Source: a plasmid
Sequence record: CP099787.1
Length of the DNA: 64,000 nt
Direction: 5' to 3' (one strand)
The translations under genes were made by a program, and so were the position numbers. How positions within the stretch are numbered: the first letter of the stretch is position 1; the number at the start of each line of letters is the position of its first letter. The notes beneath the pieces were generated by a model. That model made no database searches, had not been told where the DNA came from, and saw only the letters and a list, made by a program, of their open reading frames with translations. This document shows positions 24,340-52,662 of this stretch, in pieces.

Positions 24340-24395
24340 GTAAAACATCGTAAGCAATGAACATACTATACTAAAAAAAATCAATCAAAGTGCTG
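24340..24395 (-). promoter_or_regulatory. Conserved box TTGCAGCACTTTGAT plus TAGTATAGT (-10-like); copy 1 of 3
   Basis: Same motif at 25790-25830 and 52618-52662. Confidence 0.45.
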
Positions 24396-24398
24396 CAA

Positions 24399-25592
24399 TT
24401 ATTGAATTGGAACTTTTAATTTGAATTTGATGGTAATTTTTAATTCTTCAGATTCATTAAAATCATAAATGTGCTCATCTAAAATAATAACGATTAAAGA
24501 AGCAATGAAGCAGGCTAATATCTGATTTTGGGCATTGTCACATAACTTTTTTAATTCTGATAAATGCATTATTGCAGCTTGTACTTTTATGCCTTGAAGC
24601 CAACGGAGAACGCTTCTGTACGATACTTGAAGTAATTCTGATATATAGGTTTTAGTTTTACCAGAACGCAATAAACGCGCAGCCGTGCGCCTCATTTCAA
24701 CATATTTATCGGATTTTGCACGTCCACCTTTCTTTGCTTTAATATGTTGCCTTTCACAAAACTCTTGAAAGCAGTAGCTATCTTTTTTCCAACAATATTT
24801 TGCGATTGATTTTGCTGTAGCACAAACTTCTGAATATGGTAGCGGAACGCTAAAATTCTTATTTGCATTTATTAATAAGCTTTTTACATGATCAAACCAC
24901 TCAACAAATGTTTTACTTCTATAACTTCTAATGTCGATATATGCTTGATGCCGTATTTCGTTAAATAGATGATCATTACGGCCGTTAATTACAAATTTCT
25001 CTATACCGGGTTTTTCTGAATTTATATTTCTGTATTCATGTGGCTTAAGTTCTAAATGTTCAACAAGTTCATGCAATGAATACTTTTCTAATCGTGGTAC
25101 TTCTACAATCCATTTTTCATGTGCAGGATTCTTTGCTATTAGTCCCACGTACTTGCTGTCACCTTTTAATACTTCAGTGAGCTTTTTAGAAACTGAATTA
25201 TAAAATTCTTGAGCTCTCTTGCTGGAACTTTCAGTAAAACTTACTGGAGCTTCAAGTTCATAGTAAAAATGGCAATGAGTATTTTCTGGATTAACTACAA
25301 TTAAATTTGGTACTGGAATATTGTCATCAAAATCATACCGCCAAGCTGTTGCTGCGCCTGGATAATCAGCATCAATAACTATATATCTTTTAAAATTCGG
25401 ATGATTAATTTGTATATGTGAGTGACGTATAGCTTGTTTCTTGTCACGAATCTTTAATCCGAAGAAGTCACTGGTACAGTAAGGTTTTTTTGGTAGGTTT
25501 TCATATAATCTATTGATTATAAAGTCTTTTTTAGAATTTAAATTAACAGAGTTTACAGTCATAAGTATGCCCATTGTACAATTTGGACACAC
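24399..25592 (-). CDS. rep: plasmid replication initiator (replicase/primase-type Rep with C-terminal HTH)
   Basis: YIVIDADYP ... HFYYELEAP-type replicase block; basic helix-turn-helix C-terminus. Confidence 0.6.
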   Translation of the reverse strand: MCPNCTMGILMTVNSVNLNSKKDFIINRLYENLPKKPYCTSDFFGLKIRDKKQAIRHSHIQINHPNFKRYIVIDADYPGAATAWRYDFDDNIPVPNLIVVNPENTHCHFYYELEAPVSFTESSSKRAQEFYNSVSKKLTEVLKGDSKYVGLIAKNPAHEKWIVEVPRLEKYSLHELVEHLELKPHEYRNINSEKPGIEKFVINGRNDHLFNEIRHQAYIDIRSYRSKTFVEWFDHVKSLLINANKNFSVPLPYSEVCATAKSIAKYCWKKDSYCFQEFCERQHIKAKKGGRAKSDKYVEMRRTAARLLRSGKTKTYISELLQVSYRSVLRWLQGIKVQAAIMHLSELKKLCDNAQNQILACFIASLIVIILDEHIYDFNESEELKITIKFKLKVPIQ

Positions 25593-25632
25593 TTTTCTTG
25601 GTTATTATAATGATCTTTCGCATATAAAAGGG

Positions 25633-25664
25633 TTGCAAAAGATATGAAGTAGATGTACTATGAA
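25633..25664 (+). promoter_or_regulatory. Candidate countertranscript promoter (-35 TTGCAA, 17-bp spacer, -10 TACTAT)
   Basis: Plus strand, inside the rep leader. Confidence 0.4.
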
Positions 25665-25667
25665 TCT

Positions 25668-25766
25668 ACGTTATACAAATAACCGTTGTTAAGTATGCCC
25701 TGCGAAGGATCTTGACAACAACCAGAGAGACTGAACGTTGGCGCGTTCAGTCTTTCGTCTTTTTAA
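25668..25766 (+). ncRNA. Candidate ~100-nt antisense copy-control RNA ending in an intrinsic terminator
   Basis: Promoter plus the 25728-25766 hairpin and T-run, opposite the rep 5' leader. Confidence 0.35.
25728..25766 (+). terminator. Rho-independent terminator (10-bp stem AGACTGAACG/CGTTCAGTCT followed by a T-run)
   Basis: Seen in sequence. Confidence 0.55.
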
Positions 25767-25789
25767 GCATAGCATTTTTCTAATCAAAA

Positions 25790-25830
25790 AAAATCATCAA
25801 AGTGCTACAACTTTTCGTATTTTATAGCAC
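25790..25830 (-). promoter_or_regulatory. rep promoter region with the TTGTAGCACTTTGAT box; copy 2 of 3
   Basis: Motif similarity. Confidence 0.4.
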
Positions 25831-26065
25831 AAAATATTTTAGTTATCCACAATTTGTATAAATTTATTTTTTATCACAAATTACATTTTTCAACTCTAGC
25901 CTTAGTAACCTTATTCTAGTGCATCACTCTGCGTATTCATCTTTAAATAAATCATTCACTAAAAATGTTGAATTTTTAAACTTAACTTTTTTTTTGTATA
26001 TGGTTATCATATGATCTAAACATACACTTGATTTAAAAAATCCCACTCATTACAAGGAAACCATT

Positions 26066-26299
26066 ATGAAAAAAATCTTTTTATCTTTAACTTTGGGTTT
26101 AACACTTGCTGCTTCAAATGCTGCTTTTGCTCAAAAAAAAGGAGGCGAATGTTATTCCCGTGATAACTCAACATATATGTGCCCTGCCATTAGCCAAAAA
26201 GATCGTTTAACTATCCAACAAATTTATGATTTGGGATGGAAAGTAGTAGGTTACTTTGGAACACAAACAGGTAGATCAATTATCATCGAGCAACAATAA
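26066..26299 (+). CDS. small secreted protein
   Basis: Signal peptide; two Cys. Confidence 0.45.
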   Translation: MKKIFLSLTLGLTLAASNAAFAQKKGGECYSRDNSTYMCPAISQKDRLTIQQIYDLGWKVVGYFGTQTGRSIIIEQQ

Positions 26300-26318
26300 T
26301 TTGATAATTGTTTAGACT

Positions 26319-26618
26319 TTGCCAACACGGTACTTCATGTATGTGTTGTACCTATTGGAGAATAAAATGATTGAAAATAAGTTTATGAAATTTTTGTTAT
26401 TTCTTTTATTTGCAATTATGGGCTCCACACTTAGCTACATGATTAACAATATAATTCCTTTAATTATTTTACTTGTTATTTATGGATTAATTGTTAAGGA
26501 TCCAGCTTTAAGAGCTCATAAATTTCTAGAAAGAGAAGTGTATTTTGTTCCGTGCGATCCTAGTACATCATACAAATATGCTCCTTTTGCGCCTCCATTT
26601 TTTACTTCAAGCAAATAA
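26319..26618 (+). CDS. small membrane protein; start likely about 26367
   Basis: SD GGAG plus ATG (MIENK). Confidence 0.4.
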   Translation: MPTRYFMYVLYLLENKMIENKFMKFLLFLLFAIMGSTLSYMINNIIPLIILLVIYGLIVKDPALRAHKFLEREVYFVPCDPSTSYKYAPFAPPFFTSSK

Positions 26619-26659
26619 CCAAAACACATTTTTGAGCCTCTCGGCTTCAGGAGTCAATA

Positions 26660-27325
26660 ATGCAAATCTCAGATAGAGTTGAAAGTTATATCCGTGAAGT
26701 TGTTCATCTAAATGCTACCTCTTCTTATACATTATTGTCCTATATTGAAGGACCAATAAAGAATGAGTTCTTTTATCAAATTGATGACACTTACCAAAGA
26801 CTTTATTTTGAAGAATTACGGAAGCCCAGTGCATTAAGATTTATCCCGGGCGCAATGGAATTACTTTCAAATGATAATATTCCGTCAACCATAAAAGAAC
26901 TTTTTGTGATCGCTGCAAGACAAAGAAAGAATTTTTATTTTTGGAAGCGGCCAATTAATGCAATAACAGACTTTCTTAAATCCATAGATCCGAATCAATT
27001 GAAAGATTTATCTAAAATCAAATCATTGATATCAGAACATAACCTTAAAGCGCAAAAAAATAGCTCCATAATTCAGTTAAAATCTCTAAATGACAGATTT
27101 ATAAGCGATTTAATACATTGCTACTTTGAATTGATGAAGTATAAGTCTGATACTATTCGAGTTATTACTATTTTCAAAACAATACAGAAAGATACTGAAG
27201 TATTTCTTGATCGAGTTGAGTATTTTCTGGAAAACATTGAAAACCAAGAAATTAATGAATATTGGAATAATATCCGTATAACGTTCGATGATTTTTTACA
27301 AATTAAATATGACTTCAAACAATAA
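26660..27325 (+). CDS. hypothetical protein
   Basis: UTR hairpin GAGCCUCUCGGCUUCAGGAG upstream. Confidence 0.45.
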   Translation: MQISDRVESYIREVVHLNATSSYTLLSYIEGPIKNEFFYQIDDTYQRLYFEELRKPSALRFIPGAMELLSNDNIPSTIKELFVIAARQRKNFYFWKRPINAITDFLKSIDPNQLKDLSKIKSLISEHNLKAQKNSSIIQLKSLNDRFISDLIHCYFELMKYKSDTIRVITIFKTIQKDTEVFLDRVEYFLENIENQEINEYWNNIRITFDDFLQIKYDFKQ

Positions 27326-27362
27326 CCTCTAAACACGGTCCTTCATTTTTTCGGGTTAATAA

Positions 27363-27866
27363 ATGATTAATTTGCTTGAGCTCCTTTATCTAGGAGATTT
27401 TTATTCCCTTGTGTTTATATTTTTCTTGATGTTAATGCTAGCTAGTTTAATTTTCTTTGCATTAAAAAAACGTCCAATTTTCTATAATTCATTCAGCTTA
27501 TCATTCTTTCTTACTTTAATTGCTTGGTTGAGCATAAATGCAGCACCACTACCCTTTGCATTACAGGAAAATATTAAAACTCTTTTAATTCAACAAGCAA
27601 AAGCCGGTGTTGGGTCTAACGGTCTTGTAAATCGTATTCTAGTGCCATGTATGTATCCAAATAAAGGTTATATTAGAGGGTTTGATTATCACTATGCTTT
27701 AGATTCTTATAAAACTGACATGCAAAAACATCTTGATAAAACTGAAGCTTTTAAAGTTCAACCTAAGAGTGTCTTAAACATCGATACTAGTTTAGAGCTG
27801 TGTAAATTTATTGAAGAATTTAATGTAATAAAAGTTAAAGAAATCACAGAAAATGAACCTAGATAA
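27363..27866 (+). CDS. membrane-anchored hypothetical protein
   Basis: N-terminal TM helices. Confidence 0.4.
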   Translation: MINLLELLYLGDFYSLVFIFFLMLMLASLIFFALKKRPIFYNSFSLSFFLTLIAWLSINAAPLPFALQENIKTLLIQQAKAGVGSNGLVNRILVPCMYPNKGYIRGFDYHYALDSYKTDMQKHLDKTEAFKVQPKSVLNIDTSLELCKFIEEFNVIKVKEITENEPR

Positions 27867-27944
27867 AAGTTGCAAAATATTCCATGGCCATTCTCCTTCA
27901 GCAGCTCCTGGATAAAAGTAATTAAATGTCATAACCTTTTGTTT

Positions 27945-27982
27945 TATAAAAAAATGCCAAGAATAGTTATTAAAACTCTCTT
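27945..27982. terminator. Bidirectional terminator hairpin TGCCAAGA...TCTTGGCA flanked by A and T runs
   Basis: Lies between convergent genes. Confidence 0.5.
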
Positions 27983-28027
27983 GGCATTTTATTACAAAAA
28001 TATAAGAAGTTTAGCTTTAGATTTTTT

Positions 28028-29053
28028 CTAAGACTTATAAAAATCACTTTTGCATTTACTGGTCGACCTAATATTATCTGCCCAATTTATTAATTCGTTA
28101 TTCGATCTTGGTTTTGGCAATGTCTGAGCAATATTCAACCAACAACTTGTTGAATGCCCTTCATCGTCTTTTGTATTTTTTGCTCTTAATTTACTCCAAT
28201 TATTAACAGCTTGGTCTGCAATGCTAGGATGATTTACATACAGATAACCCGCCATATAAAGATCCGCAAAAACTTCTTTCCACAATGTAGAGGCGCTACC
28301 AAGCTCTTGGTAACTCATTAGATCTTTTACGTGGGATCTAAATTTTGGTGCTATAGCGTTTGTACCTAAAATTGTTGTCTTATCTGAATTTGCTGCATTT
28401 ATATTGAATGTTAAATAATCTCTCTTAATATCAATACAATGTGCAAACTCATGCATCATTATTGCCATCTTTGGAATATCAAGTCTTTCCTTTGCAAGCT
28501 TATCTTTTGATATATTTTTTATCATTTCTTGCTTCATATCTTGGCTCGAAACATCAGAATAATTTAATGCACAATATCCGTTCATTAAATACATTGATGC
28601 GCCTGATGCATCTGGTACAACTACTAATCTTGTTAGAGCCCAACTTGTCCTTGTATTTCCAAGTTTAATATATACATCATTTTCATGACCAAGCTTTTGA
28701 ATAATTCCGAATTCTTTACTCTTAGCATCTTGTTCATTTGTTTTTGTAAACTTTTGCTGATCTCTAATTGAGTACAAATGAAGAAATGTTCCTGAAGTGC
28801 CTACAATAACTAAAAAAATCAATGATAGAGCACCATATACAAGTTTTATATCCCATCCTTTCAATACTTCTGAAAAATTTTTCCAAATAAAATACAATAT
28901 ATAAGCTACTGATATTATGGCTATACAAACATTTAACCCCAAAAAATTATTATTAGGTTGTATATAAAAATTCAGAATGACAATAAATATTGATGATATT
29001 ACTAATCCAATTTGTGCTAGAAATAGCAGGATCATATGCGAAATTGACTTCAT
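28028..29053 (-). CDS. membrane-anchored HExxH zinc-metallopeptidase-like protein, paralogue 1
   Basis: HEFAHC motif; NGYCALN and DDEGHSTSCW blocks shared with 31336-32328; 3 N-terminal TM helices. Confidence 0.55.
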   Translation of the reverse strand: MKSISHMILLFLAQIGLVISSIFIVILNFYIQPNNNFLGLNVCIAIISVAYILYFIWKNFSEVLKGWDIKLVYGALSLIFLVIVGTSGTFLHLYSIRDQQKFTKTNEQDAKSKEFGIIQKLGHENDVYIKLGNTRTSWALTRLVVVPDASGASMYLMNGYCALNYSDVSSQDMKQEMIKNISKDKLAKERLDIPKMAIMMHEFAHCIDIKRDYLTFNINAANSDKTTILGTNAIAPKFRSHVKDLMSYQELGSASTLWKEVFADLYMAGYLYVNHPSIADQAVNNWSKLRAKNTKDDEGHSTSCWLNIAQTLPKPRSNNELINWADNIRSTSKCKSDFYKS

Positions 29054-29325
29054 TGTTGTTTGAACCGTATATCTTGTGTATGTTTAGGAGAGATGATACT
29101 AAAATCACAATATATTGTGCTTATAAGGTAAAAAATCAACTTATATTTTTAAATTCCTGTATTTTCACCGCGCCTTTACTTCATAGATTCGCGTATATGA
29201 GCATTTTAATTGATCTGTATGAACATAGGTCTTAATCTTAAGTTAGGGCTTAAACAGTAAATGAACGCAATCTAGAGGGTATTTTTTATATTAGTTTGCT
29301 GAACTCCTAAAAAAAGAGGTTCCTA

Positions 29326-29553
29326 GTGAAGAAAAATCTTTTAAATATGCCACTTGATTTACAAATGAAAAGGGCTAATGAAGCTGGTCTAACTTTAGAT
29401 CAATGGCAACAATCTATAAATGAAAAATTAGCAAATATGCATCAATGTGTTATTAAATCTATGGTTCCAACTGGTAAGTTTTGCTTCATCAAATTATCCG
29501 ATTCTGAGCGATTCCAAAGGAAAATGGACTCGGCTATATTCGTAATAAAGTAA
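29326..29553 (+). CDS. small hypothetical protein
   Basis: ORF track. Confidence 0.3.
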   Translation: MKKNLLNMPLDLQMKRANEAGLTLDQWQQSINEKLANMHQCVIKSMVPTGKFCFIKLSDSERFQRKMDSAIFVIK

Positions 29554-29578
29554 ACCATCGTAGCTAATTGGAAAAAGT

Positions 29579-29863
29579 ATGAAAACCAAAGAAATTATCC
29601 AAATGCCACTGAAATTGATCTCATCAAGTAAAAAAGATGATGTATACGAAAATATTGAAGCTCTTGTATTGAGCATAAAGAAAGATGGCTTTTTACTCCC
29701 TATCAGCGTGCGAATGAATCCCGATAAAACAGGAGAATTCATTGTTAATCTTGGGGAAAACCGATTTAGGGCAGCGCTAGCACTTGGTTTAAATACTATT
29801 CCTGTTTATATTGAGGAAGCTCCAAAAATTTCTATTGATTTCCTGTTTACGAGTCCAGAATAA
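29579..29863 (+). CDS. small ParB-N-terminal-domain-like protein
   Basis: LGENRFRAA motif resembling the ParB GxxRxxA box. Confidence 0.4.
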   Translation: MKTKEIIQMPLKLISSSKKDDVYENIEALVLSIKKDGFLLPISVRMNPDKTGEFIVNLGENRFRAALALGLNTIPVYIEEAPKISIDFLFTSPE

Positions 29864-29877
29864 TTAAATTTCGACTT

Positions 29878-31170
29878 TTAATTGTTAATTTTTAATAGCC
29901 CATCCCATGAAAAATAATTTTGGCTTAGGCTATTACGGCACATGGTCCATTTCCGATCCGGGAACATACATGTACCAACTGCAAGCTTTTTTTTACCAAA
30001 TTTATTAGTGATCGACTCGAACGCTAACATGAGATTTTCTTGTTTTGCTATATCATCCATATCTGTTAATAAGTCATATGTGAAAAGTGACTTTGGTTCC
30101 AGCCCGGTTAATATAAGCCCGCACTTTTTATATTCTATCCCTTCTGTATACACTTTCTCGATTAGCTTTACCGCAGCTTCAACCAAAGTTAAAACATTAT
30201 CAGTAGGAATAACAAAACCACTTGTAGAGCTCTTATAGTAGTACTTTCTTTTATTATCAAATGGATTAGAGTGTGCGAATACAATGATACAACCACAAAG
30301 CAAATTAGCTTTTCTAAGCCTTCTAAACGCATCTTGAGTATATCGAGAAATTGCTTCTTGTAAGTCTTCCAATGCTGTGACACGCTGACCAAAAGATTTT
30401 GATGATATTATTTGCTTTTGACTTGGTGGACTATGCTCAATCTCAATACATGGGATTCCTCGCAGCTCCATTACTGTTCTTGCTAATACCACACTAAATT
30501 GTTTTTTTATCCATACTGGATTAGCAACAGCTAAGTCATAAACTGAAGAAAACCCAAAATTATTTAATTGCTTTGCTATTCGCCTTCCAACTCCCCACAC
30601 TTCATTCAAGGGAATATCCTGAAAAATGTCTTCTTTTATGAGTGGATCCATGTTAACTAAATCGCATACTCCATTGAAATGTTTCATCTTTTTTGCTAGA
30701 AAATTACCTAATTTAGCCTCTGTTTTTGATCTACCCAATCCAACTGAGACGGGCAAACCAATTAATCGAAAGATTTCTTTTTTTATAGTATGTGCATATT
30801 CAGTTAGATCAAATAAACTCTCGTAATTAGTTAGTAAGAGCCAAGCTTCATCTATACTATAGACTTCCATTTCTTGATCAGTAACAAATTGATTTATAAT
30901 AGAATGAAAGCGTCTACTCATTTCACCATAAACTGTATAATTACTAGACAACATCACAACGTTATTACGCTTAATAATATCTTTTATCTTAAAGAGCGGA
31001 ACGCCCATCTGAATTCCAAGCAATTTCGCCTCATTTGAACGGGCTACTACCGTGGCATCCCCATTTGACAAGACAATAACTGGTTTATCAATAAGTTGTG
31101 GATTAAAAAACCGCTCAATACTAGCATAGCAGTTATTAATATCGATTAGGGCGAAGACATGCTCTTTCAT
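29878..31170 (-). CDS. umuC: Y-family error-prone DNA polymerase UmuC; no umuD adjacent
   Basis: N-terminal FALIDINNCYASIER; about 430 aa. Confidence 0.8.
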   Translation of the reverse strand: MKEHVFALIDINNCYASIERFFNPQLIDKPVIVLSNGDATVVARSNEAKLLGIQMGVPLFKIKDIIKRNNVVMLSSNYTVYGEMSRRFHSIINQFVTDQEMEVYSIDEAWLLLTNYESLFDLTEYAHTIKKEIFRLIGLPVSVGLGRSKTEAKLGNFLAKKMKHFNGVCDLVNMDPLIKEDIFQDIPLNEVWGVGRRIAKQLNNFGFSSVYDLAVANPVWIKKQFSVVLARTVMELRGIPCIEIEHSPPSQKQIISSKSFGQRVTALEDLQEAISRYTQDAFRRLRKANLLCGCIIVFAHSNPFDNKRKYYYKSSTSGFVIPTDNVLTLVEAAVKLIEKVYTEGIEYKKCGLILTGLEPKSLFTYDLLTDMDDIAKQENLMLAFESITNKFGKKKLAVGTCMFPDRKWTMCRNSLSQNYFSWDGLLKINN

Positions 31171-31291
31171 GCTATCTTGAAAATGTTACAAATTCAAAAT
31201 AAATGGTAGAGCTGAGTCTTAAAAAAAGCAAATTAAAAAAATTCTTTAAAATCATTACAACGACATTGATTGTCGTTAGTTATAATAATTA

Positions 31292-31307
31292 TTTGCGGAT
31301 CCGCAAC
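31292..31307. repeat. Near-palindrome TTTGCGGATCCGCAAC (1 mismatch) in the divergent umuC / metallopeptidase-2 intergenic region
   Basis: Seen in sequence. Confidence 0.8.
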
Positions 31308-31335
31308 GCTTGAAACTAATTACCAGGATATAAAA

Positions 31336-32328
31336 ATGTCTAATCACAAAATTAACTTGAATGATTTGACTATCCCCGTCCTTTTCATTCTATTTGTGAT
31401 TTCTATCATGATATGGCCTCTGTTGGGCTTCATAATTCCGTTGCATTACCCGGTAATCGGTTTAACTATACTTTCTTTGATGACGATGACTCCCTTATTT
31501 TTTTTATTAAATAGTCAAATTAAAAAGGGTCCTCATCCGGTTACTAGTAAATTAAAACAATTCATAATTTCAGGTTCTCTTTCTGCAAGTTTTACGCTGT
31601 TGATTGCATTGATAGCCGTTATAGTAGGTAATTCATTAAAACTCTATTCGCAAAAGCAATTTGATGATCAAAGGCAAGAATTTCTAAGTTCTGCAACCGG
31701 GTTTAAAATCTTAAAAGATTACGCTTTTAAAAATTATAAAACTGTGGTTGAGCTTGGCGACATAAATGATAGTTGGGCATTAACAACACTTAATATCCCT
31801 AATGCTTCTCCGGCTTCTATGCAAGCAGCATCGGGTTATTGCATTTTAAATCTATCACCCCAAAATGTCTTAAATACTGCACCTTCTTTAGTCGATAAGG
31901 ACTTGTGGGTTCAAGGAATCATGATGCATGAATTTGCTCATTGTCTTGATAGGTCAAGAGATTTACCTAACAAAAACTCTTTGAACCCATTGTCCACTCT
32001 GTCCATCGCTCCCGACCAAGCTAATAAAGTTACTGATCTGCAATCATATTTGCTTAATGAGAGATCTGAACAAACACAACTCTGGCGTGAAGCCGTCTCT
32101 GATATTTTTGCTATCGGATACTGGAAAATAAAAGCTGATCACAATAATTATAATTCCTTAGTAAATTCACTATATAACTATAGAGCTGAAAGAAGTTCCG
32201 ATGATCCTGAGCATGGAACAATGTGTTTTATCAAGGCTGCTATGAATAGCAAAATTCCTTTATCTGAAGAGAAATTGTTTGAATGGTCAGATGAAATAAG
32301 ACGAACTGCTAAATGTAGAATTTCTTAA
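31336..32328 (+). CDS. membrane-anchored HExxH zinc-metallopeptidase-like protein, paralogue 2 (track start 31270 is probably too far upstream)
   Basis: HEFAHC; SGYCILN; DDPEHGTMCF; TM helices. Confidence 0.55.
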   Translation: MSNHKINLNDLTIPVLFILFVISIMIWPLLGFIIPLHYPVIGLTILSLMTMTPLFFLLNSQIKKGPHPVTSKLKQFIISGSLSASFTLLIALIAVIVGNSLKLYSQKQFDDQRQEFLSSATGFKILKDYAFKNYKTVVELGDINDSWALTTLNIPNASPASMQAASGYCILNLSPQNVLNTAPSLVDKDLWVQGIMMHEFAHCLDRSRDLPNKNSLNPLSTLSIAPDQANKVTDLQSYLLNERSEQTQLWREAVSDIFAIGYWKIKADHNNYNSLVNSLYNYRAERSSDDPEHGTMCFIKAAMNSKIPLSEEKLFEWSDEIRRTAKCRIS

Positions 32329-32334
32329 AAAAAT

Positions 32335-32361
32335 GCCCTCAATTTTGAGGGCATTTTATTT
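32335..32361 (+). terminator. Rho-independent terminator GCCCTCAATTTTGAGGGC followed by a T-run
   Basis: Seen in sequence. Confidence 0.65.
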
Positions 32362-32444
32362 AATTTCTCTTTCCGTTCCTTAACTTAGCATCGATAACAA
32401 CAAACTTTCGATCGACCGTTTCCATATACTGTTTTGCCGTCGTA

Positions 32445-32885: not shown

Positions 32886-32950
32886 TTCCCTAGCAGCTTG
32901 AATTAGAAATCCTCCTGTTTTTTCATACTGCCTATAGAGTTGGGGGTCCT

Positions 32951-35900: not shown

Positions 35901-35954
35901 AAGGATTAAGTAGGTACTTTCAACGTTCCAGTACGTTTCAATTGTAAAGTCCAT
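32951..35954 (-). CDS. traG: F-type TraG (mating-pair stabilisation), split into two overlapping ORFs (35415-35954 and 32951-35485); C-terminal Gly/Ser/Asn-rich repeats
   Basis: N-terminal polytopic membrane domain; size about 1000 aa; overlap region around 35415-35485; removing one base in the G4/C4 run (35428-35431) fuses the frames; GGKGGKGGK repeats. Confidence 0.65.
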
Positions 35955-35969
35955 AATTATTATCCCTAC

Positions 35970-37397
35970 TTATTTATCTAATGTGTTAGCGAAGACAATT
36001 GACTGTCTTAAAGCTGGAGCTAAATTTGAATGTAAAGTTCGCTCCATATGCTGAACTTCCTGGGCGATATTAAATGAGACATTGGAACGTGCGTAAGCAA
36101 CTTGCGTGCTTTGGTTCAAGTCTGCTCTTGTTTTATCTAAGGTTTCTCTAATCTTAGTAACTTCTTGAGCAGTTACAGCATCAGCCGTTCCAGCAATAAT
36201 ATTGCCTAAAGCAGCTTCAACCATCTTTGAAGTTATTTCAAAGTACGCAAGAGCATATTTTGCTGCTATCAGTTCTTTGTACTGGTCTAAGGCCATCATT
36301 GCAGCAGTACTATCACCACCATATCGAGTATTCAGTGCTATGATTTTATAGATCGGAATATCTGTTAAATTGATGAATTGAATGATTCCACCAGCATCAG
36401 TAATTGGGCGACGTTGCGAAATAGCATCCGCTAGTAATCTCATCTTTTCATCTACTAGCGAATAGAATGTTTCATTAGTTGTTAAGTTGTCTTGAACAAG
36501 AGATGTACATTCATCTTCACGTGTACCATCGACACAACGCCAAACTGGAAATTGTGCTTGTGAACTTGCACTAGTACCAATGAGTGTAGAAATATTATCG
36601 ATTCTTCGCGGATAAGCGACTATTTTAGGCGTTCCATTGGTTGGATCTTCAGTTATAACTACTGTACCCACCATTGCCATGATTAAGTATTTTTGGTCTG
36701 TAGGTAATGCTGAAATTTTTGATAATGCTTTCCAAGTCAAGTTACCATCCGGTATATGATTTTTCATATTTGGATCTTGATTAGATAAATTATCTAAAGT
36801 TTGATTTGTTTGTTGTGAATTTCCCTTATTCTTGGTCCATGCTTCTGTCATATCACTGAAGATATTTTTTATTGTTCCAAAATTCATTGAAGATTGTTCG
36901 CGTCCACGCAATGCAACAGTAGAAGTTGCTGCATTAACAATCCCTTTCGCTGCCTCACACGAATCAATGTTCATTCTATTAATTTGTTGAGAGGCAGATT
37001 GAAGAGCTTGCAGAACGTTATCGCAAGTCGGACATAAATTTTGTAAAGCTAATTTAAAGCCATATCCCAATGCATTTGAGCCGATATTTTTTAGCATGGC
37101 TACAAATTGTTCTTTATTTACAAAGCTGAAGCCACCCATATACAAGTCAATGCCGCCACAACCAGCATTAGCTGAAGGAGGGGTAATAGCAGCTAGATTA
37201 TATGTGGTGTTGGGAGTTCGCATAAACAAACTCCCACCTGTCATATAATTCATAGTCTGGCCCTGGATTGCGGTTGGCTGAGTAACATTTCCACGCGCAT
37301 TTATTTGGTCAAAAACTTCTTGCATTGAGGCTGGATCGGCATTTGCAGAAACCGTAATACCAAATAGAACACCTATAATTAATGCTTTAATTTTCAT
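35970..37397 (-). CDS. traH: TraH
   Basis: Signal peptide; size and position between traG and traF. Confidence 0.65.
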   Translation of the reverse strand: MKIKALIIGVLFGITVSANADPASMQEVFDQINARGNVTQPTAIQGQTMNYMTGGSLFMRTPNTTYNLAAITPPSANAGCGGIDLYMGGFSFVNKEQFVAMLKNIGSNALGYGFKLALQNLCPTCDNVLQALQSASQQINRMNIDSCEAAKGIVNAATSTVALRGREQSSMNFGTIKNIFSDMTEAWTKNKGNSQQTNQTLDNLSNQDPNMKNHIPDGNLTWKALSKISALPTDQKYLIMAMVGTVVITEDPTNGTPKIVAYPRRIDNISTLIGTSASSQAQFPVWRCVDGTREDECTSLVQDNLTTNETFYSLVDEKMRLLADAISQRRPITDAGGIIQFINLTDIPIYKIIALNTRYGGDSTAAMMALDQYKELIAAKYALAYFEITSKMVEAALGNIIAGTADAVTAQEVTKIRETLDKTRADLNQSTQVAYARSNVSFNIAQEVQHMERTLHSNLAPALRQSIVFANTLDK

Positions 37398-37430
37398 AAC
37401 ATCACCTTAAGCCGTGAGGCTCCTTTATTA

Positions 37431-37760
37431 TTAAGATACTTGAATTGGTTTATCGCAATTCTCATCAGAGGTTTTAGTACCACTTAATTCTGGTTTTTTA
37501 AGTTTTCTGCTCCTTTCGTTTAATGAACTAGAATGTAAATGTTGCGGATCCGCAATCTTAGTTTTACTAGATGTTAATTCTTTATGTTCATTACAAAAAC
37601 GGCCAGATTCAACTTTGATTAATCTATTTTTCTGAAGTGAATGAGCTGTTTCTCTTTCACTATTAATCTTCAAAAAAACATCTTGCATTGAGTTTGAGCC
37701 AGCGAACATAGGGCCAGAACAAATCAAAGATAAGGAAATTACTATTAATTTTGCTTTCAT
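37431..37760 (-). CDS. small secreted protein; palindrome variant inside
   Basis: Signal peptide; GTTGCGGATCCGCAAT at 37541-37556. Confidence 0.35.
   Translation of the reverse strand: MKAKLIVISLSLICSGPMFAGSNSMQDVFLKINSERETAHSLQKNRLIKVESGRFCNEHKELTSSKTKIADPQHLHSSSLNERSRKLKKPELSGTKTSDENCDKPIQVS
37541..37556. repeat. Near-palindrome GTTGCGGATCCGCAAT
   Basis: Seen in sequence. Confidence 0.8.
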
Positions 37761-37930
37761 AGAGACACCATAAGCCCTTCGGCTCTAATTAAGTTTAAAA
37801 ATCTTGACCTGGTTGGGTATTTGTAAGTACCCAAATTCTTTCTATGACTTCATTTAAAGACATTACACCAAATCCGATCGGTGCGTGATCTTTAGTTTTT
37901 TTAGATGCAATAAAGGTAGCGGGTACTTTT

Positions 37931-43544: not shown

Positions 43545-43591
43545 GAATACACCCTAAGCCGTCAGGCTCCTTAATCAAAAAATCTGTCTAA

Positions 43592-46710: not shown

Positions 46711-46719
46711 AAGTTAATC

Positions 46720-47364
46720 TCACTGTCTAGTAAACTTAGAGATATCGACATTCAAGTCTTTTATTTCAGTATTTATTCCATTCAAAATTTCTTTACTATT
46801 TGGCTGGCTATTAACTGAAGCATTTACTGGTATAGGACCATCTGAACCTGTTTTAGTAGATTGCGGATCCGCAACTGTAATGGCTGGACTTGAATAGTTT
46901 GAAATTGGGGCTCCAATTGGTGCGTATGCATCTTGTAGACGTCGAGAATTGTGTTCAATCATCCACTTCCAATTGTCGATTACTAGATAGAAATATTGTT
47001 GATCGAATAAAGTTCTATCCGAAGATTCCCACGGAGCTACCCAAATTCTGAGAGTTTTCGGTTGGCGTAGTAATGGTTCATCTGCGTATGGAGCTACTGG
47101 CATTGCATTATCTTTAGTCGCACGTGTACGCTGCATATATGTATTTGCAATTACTTCTTTACTATTGCCATGTTTAACCTGCTGTGACGGCAAATTGTTT
47201 GCATTCAAATTCGCCATTACACCTGACATTGAGTCACACAAAATTCCATCTGGCGCTTTGCATGAAAATGAGCTTTGACCATTTAAACCGTCGAACCCTC
47301 CGTTAAATGCTGCACATCCACTTAGATTGATTGCCAAGCAAAGTAAAATACCTTTTCTTTTCAT
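46720..47364 (-). CDS. traV: TraV-like lipoprotein
   Basis: Lipobox LSGC plus conserved Cys pair; directly upstream of traC. Confidence 0.5.
   Translation of the reverse strand: MKRKGILLCLAINLSGCAAFNGGFDGLNGQSSFSCKAPDGILCDSMSGVMANLNANNLPSQQVKHGNSKEVIANTYMQRTRATKDNAMPVAPYADEPLLRQPKTLRIWVAPWESSDRTLFDQQYFYLVIDNWKWMIEHNSRRLQDAYAPIGAPISNYSSPAITVADPQSTKTGSDGPIPVNASVNSQPNSKEILNGINTEIKDLNVDISKFTRQ
46860..46875. repeat. Near-palindrome ATTGCGGATCCGCAAC inside CDS (VADPQS)
   Basis: Seen in sequence. Confidence 0.8.
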
Positions 47365-47652
47365 TTATAAATTCTCCAATGCTGTATGTGAATCAACGGC
47401 TTTTTCATTTTGGAAAGCCAAAATTGATTCATTGAATTTAGTTTCTTCATTCGGCTTCTTAGTTGTCTTAACAGGTGGACGAAGATGTACCTCAAGCTTA
47501 GAAATTACTTGATTAACATTTTTTGAGTTATTGACTGTTAAACACTTTTCTTGATAAGGGCTCGTTGCTAGAGCACTGCATCCTGAAAGTAAAAGAATGA
47601 ATGGACAAATAATTAAATATTTCATTGACTCTCCTGAAGCCGTGAGGCTCAC
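47365..47652 (-). CDS. small lipoprotein
   Basis: Lipobox LLSGC; UTR hairpin upstream. Confidence 0.45.
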   Translation of the reverse strand: MSLTASGESMKYLIICPFILLLSGCSALATSPYQEKCLTVNNSKNVNQVISKLEVHLRPPVKTTKKPNEETKFNESILAFQNEKAVDSHTALENL

Positions 47653-47667
47653 TATCTTTAGCTATCT

Positions 47668-48399
47668 TTATTTTGATTTCTGAGATGAATTGAGAAGTCG
47701 TTCTAGTTCAGAAACACCCACTGCTCCAGGCACCATTGAACCGTCTTCAAATATTAATGAAGGTGTACCTTGAATATTCATACTTGATGCAAATTCAATA
47801 TTACGATCTATTGGGTGAGCGCAATTTTTGGATGAAGGCTTAATATTTTCAATCATGTAATCTTGAAATGCTTTACCAGGATTCTTAGAACACCAAATTG
47901 ATACTGCTGTTGTTTTAGCAGTTGGGTGAATACTCTCTAACGGATAAAGGAATGTATAAATCGTTACATTATCAATCGATTGCAAATTACGTTCTAATTG
48001 TTGGCAATATGGGCAATCAGGATCGCTAAATACTACGAGCTTTCTTTTCCCATTGCCTTTAACTGTTTTAATTGCATCTTTTAAACGATCAGCATTCGGG
48101 AAACCAACTTCAACTTTGTTTGAACTTGTTGGAGTCGTTGTTAAATCTGTTTGTGTTTTCATATCAAACAAATTTCCAAAAATGAAGTATCTACCATCTT
48201 TATCGGTATATGCCACATTTCTACCCATTACGACTTCATATATGCCGGTTAAAGGAGTTTTATTCACTTGAGTAACAGTAGTTGCCGGATAGTTTTTTTG
48301 GATATTAGACTTAATATCTTCTGCTACATCTGCATATGCTATTGAATAGGAACTAATTGCTACGGCAAAAGTTAATAAAAATTTTTTCATATTAGTCAT
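47668..48399 (-). CDS. DsbC-like thiol:disulfide interchange protein (TrbB-like)
   Basis: CPYC; signal peptide. Confidence 0.6.
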   Translation of the reverse strand: MTNMKKFLLTFAVAISSYSIAYADVAEDIKSNIQKNYPATTVTQVNKTPLTGIYEVVMGRNVAYTDKDGRYFIFGNLFDMKTQTDLTTTPTSSNKVEVGFPNADRLKDAIKTVKGNGKRKLVVFSDPDCPYCQQLERNLQSIDNVTIYTFLYPLESIHPTAKTTAVSIWCSKNPGKAFQDYMIENIKPSSKNCAHPIDRNIEFASSMNIQGTPSLIFEDGSMVPGAVGVSELERLLNSSQKSK

Positions 48400-48440
48400 C
48401 CATTAAAATGCGTTTTTGTTGATTCATTGGAGTTGCACTT

Positions 48441-49710
48441 TTAGTTATTAAAACATTGATTCGCTACTGTGCCACCTTGTTGAACAACAATCTCTAAAGT
48501 TCGCCCTGCACTAACTTCAATAACAGGAAATAAGTCATTTGCCCGTTGCATATAGAAATCAGAAAGTTTTTCTGCTCCACCTGAAATCGCACCACCTACT
48601 GCGGCTTGCTTCAGTTCACTTCCTGAAATCGTTCTAACAGTACCTAGCGCCGATTGGCTTGCTGTACCAACTGTACTACCGTACAGTCCACCTATAGCCT
48701 CCATTGCGGATGCTAATGCAGCTTTAGCAAGAATTTGACCTTGTTTACTTACTACACGGCCACGAATACCAGTTTTGCCGTCTTCTCCAACGACTTGACC
48801 TTTAATTTGAATTGGTACTGTTTGACCATTAATAATGCAGTTACCACTTTGAATTGTTGCTTTAACACGTTCACTCGATAATTCACCCCAAGCGGCTCCT
48901 ACAAAACGACATCCTTTGATGTTCATTTTATAATTATTTGGCATATCGAATTTCCCAACTGTTTGGAATACAACTGGAATTGGGTCCGACTGTGCTTGTC
49001 CACCAGTTGGTGCATCTACGCCATTAATCATTACGACACGAACAAAACTCCCATCCGGGATAAATGTTGTTTTCTCAGGTCGTTGGCTTTTAACTGAAGT
49101 AGATGTTGTATTTCCTTGTTCATCAATTGACTTATTCATGTCAATAATGCCAAAGGTTTTAACTGGAGCTATATTATTTGGTAAAGGTATTCGCTCGCCT
49201 GTCTGAGGATCGATACCAGTTCCATTTGGATCTGATAGAATACTTTGTCCATGCAATCCTTGTTTATTTGGATAAGCTGAAGATGTACCAGCTATTCCCC
49301 CAAGATTTGGTGGATTTGTATTTGTTGGTTGTGCTACCACTCTTGATTCGGAACGATTAGCAATTTGACTAATACGCTCGTTCATTATTGATAGTTCTGA
49401 CTTTAACGCATCATTTTGAGCAACTTGAGAGTTAACGGTTTGAGTTAAATCATCGAATTTGCTTTTTTTGAGCTTCTTGATCAATTGCGGCCGTTTGTCT
49501 CCATTTATCTTGCTCTTCAGCATCACCCGGTTTTTCCACATTTACCGCATTTTCAGGTGCTTGAGTTTTATTCGTTTCTTCTGGTGGACTTCCAGAAAAC
49601 AAGAAAATAGCAACAATAATGAATAATATTGTGCCTAATATGGCCAACCATTTAATTTGTTTTTTCTTGAGTTTGTCATTAGGATTTTCTAAATCGATAT
49701 CGTTACTCAT
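48441..49710 (-). CDS. traB: TraB/VirB10-like, split into two overlapping ORFs (49450-49710 and 48441-49541)
   Basis: N-terminal TM plus Pro-rich region, then VirB10-like C-terminus; T7 run at about 49466. Confidence 0.65.
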
Positions 49711-49719
49711 TTATATCTC

Positions 49720-50442
49720 CTAATTATTTTCTCTAACAACATAAACAAATGTCGATCTGCCAGGGCTTAGTGTTAAATTTTGAATAGAAACAGCACTTAC
49801 ACCTTTTCTATAAAATTCCTGCTCTAACAAATTCATTGTTTTATTTGTTAAATTAGTTAGTTGATACATTTCGCCATACATACCGTCGGTATCGTAACGA
49901 CGCAACAAAACAAATTTAGACTCTTTCCACAAAGGGATTTCTGCTTTTACGAACGAACGGGATATCCCGTCTACGGCAAGTGTCTCTTGAGGATTTTCGG
50001 CATCATCTCCCATGACATACATCAATTCTTTTATTTGCTGTAAATAGGATTGAGATCGTTTGCTTGTGCCCGCACCTGGTTTTGGCGGAACTAATACAAC
50101 CTCTTCGGCCCCAACGCTACGTGGCTGCAATACAAGCTTGTAACGGGTTCCTTCATCATCAGTAACAAATAGAGTTATAGGTGTATTCTGGAAATATGGA
50201 GATATTTTAAAATAGAGAGTCCCTTGCTCTTTATCTGGCAAGGTATCCAAAGCTGTTACATCTGATGGCACTAAATTAACAATTCGTCTTCCATCAACAA
50301 CAAGCACATTTGGCTCTGTATTCGACACAGTTACTTGAACAGTTTCTTGATCAGCTTTAGTAATATGTTGAGCCGCAAATGTAGATGTAGTCAGGAAGAT
50401 AGAAGATATAAACAATGCAATTTTACTGAGTTGCAATTTCAT
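49720..50442 (-). CDS. traK: TraK
   Basis: Signal peptide; gene order. Confidence 0.6.
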   Translation of the reverse strand: MKLQLSKIALFISSIFLTTSTFAAQHITKADQETVQVTVSNTEPNVLVVDGRRIVNLVPSDVTALDTLPDKEQGTLYFKISPYFQNTPITLFVTDDEGTRYKLVLQPRSVGAEEVVLVPPKPGAGTSKRSQSYLQQIKELMYVMGDDAENPQETLAVDGISRSFVKAEIPLWKESKFVLLRRYDTDGMYGEMYQLTNLTNKTMNLLEQEFYRKGVSAVSIQNLTLSPGRSTFVYVVRENN

Positions 50443-51001
50443 CTTTCACCTCATTTAATGAATAAAGACATATCGTTCCCTTACTCATCACAAATTTAGT
50501 TTGAATCTTTTGTGATTTTTCAGAGACTAAACGATCTGCCAAATAGGTTTTCCTTGTTCCTTCAATGGTTACGGCCTTATCTGCTTCTTGAAAAGTGAAA
50601 GCACCTGAAGATGACCACACACTGGTAAGGCCCTCACGTTTAATTTGTGCTTCAGATTGACTTAAATATTTTTGAATTTGTGGGAAGGATGGTTCACATG
50701 TAATGCCTAGAATTTTTTCAAAGTTCTTGGATACATTTATTGGTGTAACATTGAATAGATAATTAATTACATAGTTTGAAAAATCTAAATAATATTCTTT
50801 ATTTGCCGAAGTACTTCCTAAGATATACGTTGGGCCTGAATTATCCGAAGGTTTAATTATTGTTTTGCCACTCAGTGCAAGTACAATATTTGCAATTATT
50901 GATAAAGTAAGTAAGCCTATTAAAGAAAAGATCACATAAGTCTGTGATCTATTTCTTAAATTAAGGCTTTCATTTGATGCTATTCCAACTTCTGAATCCA
51001 T
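50423..51001 (-). CDS. traE: TraE
   Basis: N-terminal TM; gene order. Confidence 0.6.
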   Translation of the reverse strand: MDSEVGIASNESLNLRNRSQTYVIFSLIGLLTLSIIANIVLALSGKTIIKPSDNSGPTYILGSTSANKEYYLDFSNYVINYLFNVTPINVSKNFEKILGITCEPSFPQIQKYLSQSEAQIKREGLTSVWSSSGAFTFQEADKAVTIEGTRKTYLADRLVSEKSQKIQTKFVMSKGTICLYSLNEVKDEIATQ

Positions 51002-51005
51002 AATG

Positions 51006-51305
51006 TCATCCGAAAAAGTGGCGATTGTTTGATTCAGGCAACTCCTTTAATTTCGGTGAGTTAGCCACCCAGTAAGTTAGGTGGAGCATATAATCAGGAT
51101 GTAGACCTGCTTTAGCTTTATTGAAGTAATAAGCTATTGCGAATCCCACAAAGAATCCCAAGAAGGGATGACCAAAAACAAAACCCAGAATGAAGATCAG
51201 AAATGAAGCTAAAGCAACATCTTGATCAAACATTAAGAACTTTGATTTAGCATCGATGTACGTTGGAACATAATGAGAAAGTTCTACACCTGAAGACATA
51301 CCCAC
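51006..51305 (-). CDS. traL: TraL
   Basis: Small membrane protein; gene order. Confidence 0.55.
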   Translation of the reverse strand: MGMSSGVELSHYVPTYIDAKSKFLMFDQDVALASFLIFILGFVFGHPFLGFFVGFAIAYYFNKAKAGLHPDYMLHLTYWVANSPKLKELPESNNRHFFG

Positions 51306-51320
51306 CCCACTAAAAAGTTA

Positions 51321-51674
51321 TTAGATAACGGCTGTAAACGAACCTGTTACTAACGACACAATAATTCCAACTACAACGGCAGCAACTGCTGGAATTACAA
51401 TAACGCGAAGATCACGAGTCCAAGCGAATGCACCAATTGCGAATAATAAACTCGCAAGAATTGCTAATTTCCCGTATGGGCCTTTAATCCAGCCTTCCAC
51501 TGTTGTCGCCCAAGTGTTAAATGTAGAACCAACACCTGTACCAGTACCTGCGGTTGATAAAGTCATCCAAATAAGCATTGCTGTGACAACCATCAAGGCG
51601 ATTGTTACTGGACGTTTTAGTTTTTTGATATCAAAGTAAATTTGATGTGTTTGAGCTGGAACAACTAATTCCAT
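51321..51674 (-). CDS. traA: TraA propilin
   Basis: Long leader plus two hydrophobic helices; about 117 aa. Confidence 0.65.
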   Translation of the reverse strand: MELVVPAQTHQIYFDIKKLKRPVTIALMVVTAMLIWMTLSTAGTGTGVGSTFNTWATTVEGWIKGPYGKLAILASLLFAIGAFAWTRDLRVIVIPAVAAVVVGIIVSLVTGSFTAVI

Positions 51675-51724
51675 ATTTTTATTCCTCTTAAGGTTTTAGG
51701 TTTTGCCCCCTTAAATGGGGTTAT

Positions 51725-51961
51725 TTATTTGGCTACTGCCAAATGCTTTTCACTGCGCTCTTGTTGAACGCAACTTTTATTTTCTGGATCACATAGAACA
51801 AATTTTGATTCTCTGCCTTCACCCTTTTGAAGAACATTCACATATCGGGTGATAGGGTTAGGTTCATTCATACTCTGCTGTTTTGTTTCATTTTTTTGTT
51901 CTTTTGCTACTGCTAAGGTTGCGGATCCGCAACATAGTAGAAGCAAAAAAAATCTATTCAT
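51725..51961 (-). CDS. small secreted protein; perfect palindrome encodes part of its signal peptide (CCGSATLA)
   Basis: Signal peptide; palindrome at 51918-51933. Confidence 0.4.
   Translation of the reverse strand: MNRFFLLLLCCGSATLAVAKEQKNETKQQSMNEPNPITRYVNVLQKGEGRESKFVLCDPENKSCVQQERSEKHLAVAK
51918..51933. repeat. 16-bp perfect palindrome
   Basis: Seen in sequence. Confidence 0.9.
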
Positions 51962-51977
51962 TTCATACTCCGTGTGG

Positions 51978-52604
51978 TTAGAATCGAATTATTTGGAAAT
52001 TTGAAGTTTTCTTAATTGTTTGATTCACTGAAGAATAATTTGGAATATCTTCGTTATAATTAACTGACTGAGCTTTTATACTTTGAGGTTGTAATGGGGT
52101 ATAAACTGCTGGTAAGCCCGCTTTTCTTTTATAGCCTTCAAAGTATCTTCGAACATCGGCAGAATATTGATTCATTGCCGTATATGCTTTAGAAGCAGGT
52201 CCTCCGTAGTAACACCCTACTGCTCTCCAGACTTCACCAAATTTTTTTAAACAATCAGCAAGAACCCATGAAGCAATTTTTTGAGAAGTACAAGGATCGA
52301 ATAAATCATTACGAGTAATTCCTTGTTTTCTTAAAGCTGGTAAATGAATGGTATTTATCTGCATTAGTCCTAATGCTCTATTGCCATCTTTAAGTAAAGA
52401 ACCAACTGCACCAACATGGCCTCTACTCTCTTTCCATCCAATTGCTTTTAATAAAATAGGATCCGTACCATACATACTTGCGGCTTCATCCCAACAAACA
52501 GCATATGTTGTTGATGTAACACAAGCTCCAAATACGATTGCTGAAAGTTTTATAATTGAGTTATGTATGTTGTAAGTTTTAGCTCTTTGCATAGCTTCAA
52601 TCAT
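51978..52604 (-). CDS. VirB1/Orf169-like lytic transglycosylase; first gene of the tra operon
   Basis: LGLMQIN SLT motif. Confidence 0.7.
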   Translation of the reverse strand: MIEAMQRAKTYNIHNSIIKLSAIVFGACVTSTTYAVCWDEAASMYGTDPILLKAIGWKESRGHVGAVGSLLKDGNRALGLMQINTIHLPALRKQGITRNDLFDPCTSQKIASWVLADCLKKFGEVWRAVGCYYGGPASKAYTAMNQYSADVRRYFEGYKRKAGLPAVYTPLQPQSIKAQSVNYNEDIPNYSSVNQTIKKTSNFQIIRF

Positions 52605-52617
52605 GTACGAATTAATA

Positions 52618-52662
52618 TGTTATTATCATACTAAAAAATTACATCAAAGTGCTGCAATTTTT
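52618..52662 (-). promoter_or_regulatory. tra operon promoter with the TTGCAGCACTTTGAT box and TAGTATGAT -10; copy 3 of 3
   Basis: Motif shared with both rep-flanking sites. Confidence 0.5.

Follow-up and report, generated by a model that had tools for sequence, protein, structure and literature searches.

Plasmid backbone and placement of the box

A 64,000-nucleotide stretch of plasmid DNA (sequence record CP099787.1; "the window" refers to this whole stretch) was analyzed for a short sequence box that recurs beside the replication, maintenance, and conjugative transfer genes and that might act as a shared operator. The rep region of the window was 99.9% identical to those of pXH731 and ~200 other Acinetobacter baumannii plasmids from PLSDB, which were typed as conjugative, MOBF and MPF_F, and pXH731 was collinear with the window across 61.9 kb. 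The window represents a RepAci6-type conjugative plasmid of A. baumannii, from the family that includes pACICU2, pAb-G7-2, and p1AB5075. It ends within the first gene of the coupling-protein/relaxase operon, and the backbone past this point (a further 5–6 kb) was read in pHKU4b (locus L007).

The box is found at four sites, named here A to D (Table 1). Site A begins at the base following the rep stop codon (TAA, 24401–24399), and 57 nt downstream lies the ATG at 24327, which opens an open reading frame (ORF) of 79 amino acids (aa), probably the first gene served by a putative promoter A. Site B is placed upstream of rep, and site C precedes the tra operon, separated by 38 nt from the ATG at 52604. 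Site D, in the oriT region, precedes the coupling-protein/relaxase operon, 48 nt before its start codon and on the opposite strand, in an intergenic region that also contains an F-like nick sequence, GGTGCGTGGTGTGTGA.

Two further lineages were available for comparison. The first, syntenic with the RepAci6 plasmids and present in PLSDB, is represented by a plasmid of strain HRAB-85 (NZ_CP018144.1), with ~70% identity over the rep region and backbone proteins 20–89% identical to their RepAci6 counterparts. The other is a metagenome-assembled genome with a 62% identical Rep, recovered by Rep-based scans of genomes and metagenomes. These scans provided no other distant lineage, and PLSDB contained only the RepAci6 and HRAB-85 types.

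Copies of the box and their distribution

The preliminary description of this DNA had reported three minus-strand copies of a 15-mer, all of which were recovered in the window: sites A and C carry TTGCAGCACTTTGAT exactly, and site B differs from it by a single mismatch (TTGTAG). On the other hand, the range it had assigned to site A (24340–24395) cuts off the first three bases of the motif, and its list was incomplete, since a fourth copy, site D, is carried by the same backbone just beyond the window. All other window matches to the 15-mer have at least three mismatches. Sequence shuffling gave an expectation of 0.34 matches at up to two mismatches, and three matches were reached in 0 of 100 shuffles, against the three observed. 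Moreover, the three window copies are all intergenic, i.e., they fall in the 9–12% of the window outside ORFs of at least 60–75 aa.

A weight matrix built from 11 site instances was scanned over the RepAci6 backbone and the HRAB-85-type relative, and exactly four strong sites were obtained per plasmid, scoring 31–36 in RepAci6 and 24–34 in the diverged relative, while everything else scored 16 or less. These four sites correspond to the rep, maintenance, tra, and oriT/relaxase regions, and all of them are intergenic. Measured to the start codon of the gene that it points at, the box lies 38 to 235 nt upstream, or ~520 nt in the case of site D. When a 40-nt composite of the box was compared with 72,556 plasmids, the matches were restricted to these Acinetobacter plasmid lineages, except for five records (Piscirickettsia, Klebsiella, and Rhizobium), and a typical RepAci6 record was matched at four places. 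This near confinement of the composite to these lineages agrees with a family-specific system.

Two weaker box-like sequences were also observed. One of them, CTCTATCATTGATTTTTTTAGTTAT, lies at 28802–28837 (-) of the window within the ORF at 28028–29053; its matrix score is 15, and either chance or an internal promoter may account for it. The other is a weaker fifth copy in the HRAB-85 relative, the perfect palindrome TGTATCAACTTGATGG at L003 16772–16799 (-), equivalent to NZ_CP018144.1 64247–64274, which coincides directly with the ribosome-binding site of the gene toward which site D is oriented, in a 13-nt segment that is missing in RepAci6.

Conservation of the box among plasmid lineages

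Homologous plasmids do not lack the motif: the four sites were found at the same positions in the relative with ~70% identity. Between RepAci6 and this relative, box identity amounts to 84% at sites A and D, against 41–48% for the flanking 60 nt, and the flanking non-coding DNA at sites A, C, and D is 41–50% identical. At site A, where the flanks are 48% identical, the 20-nt run CACTTTGATTGATTTTTTTT is the longest identical run of the whole alignment, and at site B an 18-nt run, AAGTTGTAGCACTTTGAT, is identical in both plasmids. In the site C of the relative, the arms, the T-run, and TAGTATGATA are kept and the center is changed from CTT to AAG, an in-place flip. Similarly, the third lineage has an unchanged site B and a site A that reads ATCA-ATA-TGATTGATTTTTTTT, and site D is exact in two RepAci6 sub-lineages with differing flanks. 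These alignments show the box sites to be under selection.

The 11 instances never differ at G3, A5, C7, A8, and T12-G13-A14-T15, but they do at T1 and T2 of the putative –35 hexamer, and the center of the dyad is CTT, AAG, or ATA. The element that is recognized in this way consists of a dyad, A(T/G)CA-N3-TGAT, preceded at a distance of two bases by an invariant G and followed by a T-run. Since the dyad bases are invariant while T1 and T2 vary, the constrained element is this short dyad with its T-run rather than TTGNNN, and the combination of invariant arms, variable T1/T2, and a changing center is the pattern of a dimer site rather than that of a –35 hexamer.

Table 1. Positions of the box sites, associated genes, and other features (window coordinates unless another locus is given).
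Feature	Position	Strand	Remarks
Site A box ATTGCAGCACTTTGATTGATTTTTTTTA	24372–24400	-	Core 15-mer 24384–24398; T-run 24373–24380
Two overlapping TAGTAT –10-like hexamers, site A	24363–24373	-	Second one (24368–24363, TAGTATG) aligned in all three lineages
79-aa ORF that opens the long maintenance block after site A; the zeta-toxin gene comes next	24088–24327	-	Orthologous 79-aa ORF in the relative
Site B TTGTAGCACTTTGAT, then T-run	25796–25810	-	~235 nt upstream of the rep ATG
TGCTATGCT, extended –10-like, downstream of site B	25766–25774	-	Candidate –10 of the rep promoter; also in lineage L008
Site C ATTGCAGCACTTTGATGTAATTTTTTAG	52631–52658	-	Core 52643–52657; upstream of the first tra gene
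TAGTAT –10-like hexamer, site C	52628–52633	-	Within a 15-nt run TTTTTTAGTATGATA, identical in the relative
Lytic transglycosylase gene, first of the F-type pilus/mating-pair (tra) operon	51978–52604	-	pXH731 annotation
Site D TTGTAGCACTTTGATGCATTTTTTTT	L007 11246–11260 (~window 64245, ~245 nt past the window end)	+	oriT region
rep (RepAci6), ColE2-type initiator	24399–25562	-	Replicase, PriCT_1, and helix-turn-helix domains; match to the ColE2-P9 Rep DNA-binding domain (3VW4)
Putative antisense RNA unit opposite the rep leader	25584–25766	+	Promoter TGGACA-N16-TATAAT 25584–25611; terminator hairpin 25725–25756 and T-run
ColE2-type origin candidate TGTGACAATGCCCAAAATCAGATATTAGCC in the rep 3′ end	24513–24542	-	30-nt island, one base differs across three lineages (Rep 62–67% identical)
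Perfect DnaA box TGTGGATAA	25843–25851	-	33 nt upstream of site B, in a block conserved in all three lineages
Palindrome GTTGCGGATCCGCAAC, 16 nt each	6231, 11440, 18377, 20797, 23833, 31292, 37541, 46860, 53648, 60598; also 51919		
Ribosome-binding site hairpin, examples	3131–3160, 4806–4835, 9186–9215, 12796–12825, 14050–14084, 15200–15234	-	
Ribosome-binding site hairpin, examples (continued)	16855–16889, 20660–20694, 37393–37422, 37756–37785	-	
Ribosome-binding site hairpin, examples	54536, 55339, 55763, 56543	+	

Relation of the box to predicted core promoters

The earlier proposal held that each window copy is followed after 10–12 nt by TAGTAT, with a longer than ideal spacer, and that the 15-mer may therefore be an operator overlapping a –35 element. 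In fact, TAGTAT follows two of the three copies, at 9–10 nt: at site A, the hexamer at 24373–24368 has a 19-nt spacer from TTGCAG and lies 10 nt past GAT, and at site C, the hexamer at 52633–52628 has an 18-nt spacer and lies 9 nt past GAT. The long spacer therefore holds for sites A and C of this plasmid but not for the site A of two relatives, in which a –35 candidate inside the box, TTGATT, is separated from TAGTAT by 16 nt. What stands of the proposed overlap is a conserved cis-element at the heads of the rep, maintenance, and tra blocks, which is kept in relatives; its promoter activity is a prediction made from sequence.

In all lineages, a conserved TAGTAT(G) hexamer comes after sites A and C; the hexamer after site D is TAATAT or TAAATT. 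From the center of the dyad to the conserved –10-like hexamer, the distance is 14–15 nt at sites C and D and 21–23 nt at site A. The box is fixed in sequence but not in register with the –10 element, which looks like the behavior of an operator and not of a polymerase contact. As the most conserved bases lie outside the constraint of RNA polymerase and the distance from the box to the –10 element differs between sites, a bound factor is indicated rather than a bare –35 hexamer.

The box might nevertheless be only a reused sigma-70 core promoter, with overlapping –35 candidates (TTGYAG and TTGATK), a T-rich spacer, and no dedicated regulator. The presence of TTG(C/T)AG with 17–19-nt spacers to TA...T hexamers at sites A, C, and D, the 16-nt arrangement of TTGATT in the two relatives mentioned above, and the fact that all copies point at downstream genes are in agreement with this explanation, as is the report that A. 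baumannii promoters carry canonical RpoD motifs (PMC6182133). Such a promoter would not account, however, for strict conservation at spacer-type positions (CA-N3-TGAT) together with variation at T1 and T2, nor for the inconsistent –10 spacing and the missing –10 element at the expected distance from site B, and a simple sigma-70 consensus scan called no promoter at any box site. A bare promoter is considered an unlikely explanation.

Other promoter-related possibilities were considered and set aside. MerR-type promoters have a 19–20-nt spacer, a long dyad centered in the spacer, and a MerR-family gene, whereas here the spacers are variable (17–19 nt), the dyad of 4+4 bp lies at the –35 end, and no MerR-family domain was found. 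An extended –10 element can be read on the opposite strand, TGCTACAAT, but only site D of RepAci6-type plasmids has a good version, which is directed into the relaxase operon and could serve it. The versions at sites A and C (TGCAAT), at site B (TACAAC), and in the relative are poor, so that this element would be no more than a local addition. Finally, no hairpin or terminator was called at site A that would make it the intrinsic terminator of rep, with a predicted fold of –5.8 kcal/mol and a z-score of –0.35.

A proposed shared operator and its possible binding factors

The favored explanation, given about an even chance, is that a dedicated sequence-specific factor acts at the four putative promoters, with the box as its shared operator. 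The box would be an operator set in the core promoters of four backbone modules, i.e., rep, the maintenance block, the tra operon, and the oriT/coupling-protein-relaxase region. One factor, most likely a plasmid-encoded small dimeric repressor, would bind the A(T/G)CA-N3-TGAT dyad and block access to the –35/spacer region, which would make the supply of initiator, the maintenance genes, and both transfer operons rise and fall together. From the sequence we infer the promoter nature of the sites, protein binding, repression, and a single factor for all four. The narrower proposal that one plasmid protein, possibly a ribbon-helix-helix-like relaxosome protein encoded beside oriT, binds the 11-bp dyad at exactly four places is more tentative.

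Several observations weigh against the shared operator. In ~40 backbone ORFs scanned with Pfam and NCBIfam, the only proteins with DNA-binding domains were Rep, ParB, an H-NS-like protein, and the resolvase, and no small DNA-binding protein was found. The backbone proteins of unassigned function are mostly 20–60% identical between lineages that have nearly the same box, which agrees better with a conserved host factor than with a plasmid repressor that evolves rapidly. The arms of the dyad are just 4 bp long, and the left arm is AGCA, not ATCA, in every RepAci6 copy. Moreover, site D faces away from the relaxase operon beside it, and site B is devoid of TAGTAT, its nearest –10-like element being TGCTATGCT. 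In the literature searched, nothing was found on the motif, on RepAci6 plasmid promoters, or on p1AB5075 transcription starts, and the papers naming both RepAci6 and promoters do not treat backbone regulation. An iModulon study described the tra locus as one co-modulated set and reported no cis-element.

Among conjugative plasmids, the carbapenem and amikacin resistance genes of A. baumannii are carried chiefly by the RepAci6 family, with over 200 nearly identical records in PLSDB, and the regulation of the backbone of these plasmids appears to be undescribed in the literature searched. If a single, as yet unannotated plasmid protein binds the four sites, one switch would govern production of the initiator, the stability block, formation of the pilus, and DNA processing on the plasmids responsible for spreading OXA-23 and aphA6, as a minimal four-operator global circuit without detectable homology to the KorA, omega, and TraY systems. 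A single conserved box heading replication, maintenance, and both transfer modules provides a concrete, testable handle and could be used as a bait for the regulator, and the four defined sites allow asking whether transfer and copy number are coupled, with a possible target to shut both down.

The binding protein could alternatively be a conserved host protein, for example an architectural one such as IHF, with the plasmid reusing one good host site four times. A host factor stays in play because the box is near-identical across lineages whose proteins have diverged (to 20–60% identity), and the perfect DnaA boxes placed 20–33 nt upstream of sites B and D indicate that the plasmid makes use of host factors. 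On the opposite strand, the sites present an A-tract followed by (A/C)ATCAA-AGTG-CT(G/A)CAA, which agrees in 12 of 15 bases with the core of the lambda H′ IHF site, TATCAATTTGTTGCAA, and binding sites for IHF are a usual feature of oriT regions, tra promoters, and plasmid origins. With respect to the IHF consensus, WATCAANNNNTTR, WATCAA is present, but TTR is absent from 11 of 11 sites (CTG, CTA, ATA, or ATT instead), so that the box was rejected as a good IHF site. The A-tract lies 0–3 nt from the core instead of ~8 nt, and neither the conserved bases at the consensus-free N4 positions nor the flipped center of the relative's site C would be expected of IHF. The 40-nt composite was not found on other Acinetobacter plasmid families in a BLAST comparison, which would miss degenerate sites. 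Altogether, a host protein is regarded as improbable.

If the factor is plasmid-encoded, as the shared-operator explanation favors, the first product of the relaxase operon is a lead, not a finding. This 156-aa protein, whose gene has its 5′ part at window 63727–64000, would act in a TraY/TrwA-like manner, binding oriT, its own promoter (site D), the tra promoter, and both sides of rep. The gene starts 48 nt from site D, a position that is conserved in both lineages, and the N-terminus of the protein, KKVSIGGKVSPEIKKYYDDMANRLGISTSQLLEKILIENL, shows by eye a strand-helix-G-x-S/T-helix pattern that is ribbon-helix-helix-like; the ortholog of the relative keeps this pattern, with V-x-h-G-x-(K/R)-V-x-P and G-L-T. 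Short ATCAC-type dyads (WATCACW heptads) are the targets of ribbon-helix-helix proteins, e.g., inc18 omega. Yet no match to the 156-aa protein was obtained in Pfam, NCBIfam, or a PDB sequence search, its AlphaFold model was uninformative (mean predicted local distance difference test score, pLDDT, of 42.6), and nothing ties it to the rep-flanking sites. In addition, it is only ~33% identical between lineages, while the box barely changes. As the factor behind all the sites, it is decidedly unlikely.

Another ORF with an N-terminus that is ribbon-helix-helix-like by eye (75 aa, 29326–29553, +) precedes a 94-aa protein composed only of a ParB N-terminal domain (29579–29863, +). This pair is missing from the diverged relative and is therefore not the shared factor. 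Homologue searches for two candidate regulators retrieved close relatives only.

Replication region: putative antisense RNA and candidate origin

The Rep protein shows ~35% identity to its counterparts on small ColE2-type plasmids of enterobacteria, and its helix-turn-helix is C-terminal. Opposite the rep leader, a putative antisense RNA unit was recognized, whose promoter matches 11 of 12 consensus positions and whose terminator has 14 pairs. The predicted structure of this RNA, with three stem-loops and the terminator, recurs in three lineages, among which compensatory changes are seen, and no Rfam family matched anywhere in the window, antisense RNA included. Antisense control of rep is part of the ColE2 scheme (PMC5304414). 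As this unit lies opposite the leader, the rep mRNA must start upstream of ~25766, i.e., at site B, and the arrangement of the predicted antisense unit is the best indirect evidence that site B belongs to the rep promoter.

ColE2-type origins are located at or just after the 3′ end of rep (PMC2831885; PMC5304414), and an origin inside rep was already described for Pseudomonas relatives (PMC5304414). The canonical origins that were read for comparison are those of a Salmonella Col156 plasmid (CCTATATCAGATAACAGCGCC, directly past the stop codon) and an A. pittii plasmid (CCATATCAGATATCAGCCCC). A scan with the canonical core, ATATCAGATA(A/T)CAGC, which includes the AGA primer template, revealed a matching origin-like core, AAATCAGATATTAGC, at 24514–24528, 115 nt upstream of site A and identical in three lineages, which also resembles the ColE2 origins ATATCAGATAACAGC. 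The conserved island at 24513–24542 is probably the replication origin, within the rep coding sequence.

It is very unlikely that the box is the binding site of Rep, with site A as the ColE2-type origin and the other copies titrating or autoregulating the initiator: although Rep is a ColE2-type primase-initiator with a C-terminal helix-turn-helix, such origins usually come right after rep (PMC2831885, PMC5304414), and site A of two relatives starts with TAG-TATCA as canonical origins do (TATATCAGATAAC), the box shares only ATCA with the core, and a far better candidate lies inside the 3′ end of rep. Site A was accordingly rejected as an origin, and with the origin explained without the box, Rep is an unlikely box-binding factor.

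The conserved block upstream of site B, identical in three lineages, contains a second DnaA-box-like repeat at 25871–25880 (-). In RepAci6-type plasmids, a perfect DnaA box is also found 20 nt upstream of site D (L007 11216–11224), and it is absent from the relative.

Comparison with known plasmid regulatory systems

Judging by the arrangement of its copies, the box is probably a new case of the class of plasmid global regulons represented by IncP KorA/KorB and inc18 omega. As in the IncP plasmids RK2 and R751, with KorA, KorB, and TrbA, short operators are repeated at the replication (trfA in IncP), maintenance, and transfer modules of one conjugative plasmid, which in IncP leads to co-repression of these functions, and a second, palindromic family is scattered around the plasmid, which in IncP is bound by the ParB homologue and here has a putative counterpart in GTTGCGGATCCGCAAC. 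The operator itself is unrelated, since the IncP OA is GTTTAGCTAAAC and the dyad found here is much shorter and followed by a T-run, and no KorA homologue was detectable.

Omega of the inc18 plasmid pSM19035 is a small dimeric repressor of copy-number control, partition, and the zeta-toxin operon, which acts via repeated heptads. The resemblance lies in the half-site, as TATCAC(T) of the relatives compares with WATCACW, and in the presence of a zeta-toxin gene in a putatively controlled operon, directly downstream of the site. In contrast, omega needs at least two contiguous heptads in a 7-bp register, whereas the box offers one inverted pair ~6 bp apart, with AGCAC in RepAci6; moreover, no omega homologue was found, the 79-aa ORF before zeta is not ribbon-helix-helix-like, and the host is Gram-negative in this case.

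The box also resembles the sites of F TraY and R388 TrwA, being present at oriT beside the first gene of the relaxase operon and at the promoter of the pilus operon, as TraY sites are at oriT and PY. Neither TraY nor TrwA is known to act at the replication gene, which is a difference from the box. With the ColE2 replicon, the plasmid shares the ColE2-type Rep, the putative antisense RNA opposite the leader, and the origin-like core at the 3′ end of rep; ColE2 plasmids, unlike this one, are small and have no operator known to be shared with other operons, so the box would be an addition to the replicon.

Other repeat families and minor observations

Three further families of repeated elements were observed on this backbone. 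The first is a perfect 16-bp palindrome, GTTGCGGATCCGCAAC, with at least 10 copies in coding and intergenic sequences, one of them just upstream of parA, and 15–18 copies in the relative; these palindromes look like a set of ParB/KorB-type sites. The second joins a small hairpin to the ribosome-binding site (GAGCTGAAAAGCTTAAGGAG, then 5–8 nt and ATG); it precedes ~24 genes of the maintenance and leading blocks, with 19 copies in the relative, and may be an element of translational control or RNA processing. The third is a 21–22-nt element, GAAATCAGCCTATCCGATTTC, with inverted arms GAAATC/GATTTC, found at 817–838, 11338–11359, 12833–12854, and 15241–15262. One of its copies lies just upstream of parA and the others beside ~300-nt repeats (857–1153, 12897–13193, and 15282–15578), and it is a further candidate operator or promoter family. 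By analogy, such layered cis-elements are typical of plasmids with several global regulators, e.g., IncP, IncW, and IncN.

Finally, two backbone genes are each split into two overlapping ORFs in the window: the zeta-toxin gene (83 + 283 aa, 23018–24101, -), which encodes a single protein of 361 aa in near-identical relatives, and the mobF relaxase gene (699 + 398 aa, 58275–61551, -), which encodes a single protein of 1091 aa in such relatives. These splits are either frameshifts or sequencing errors.

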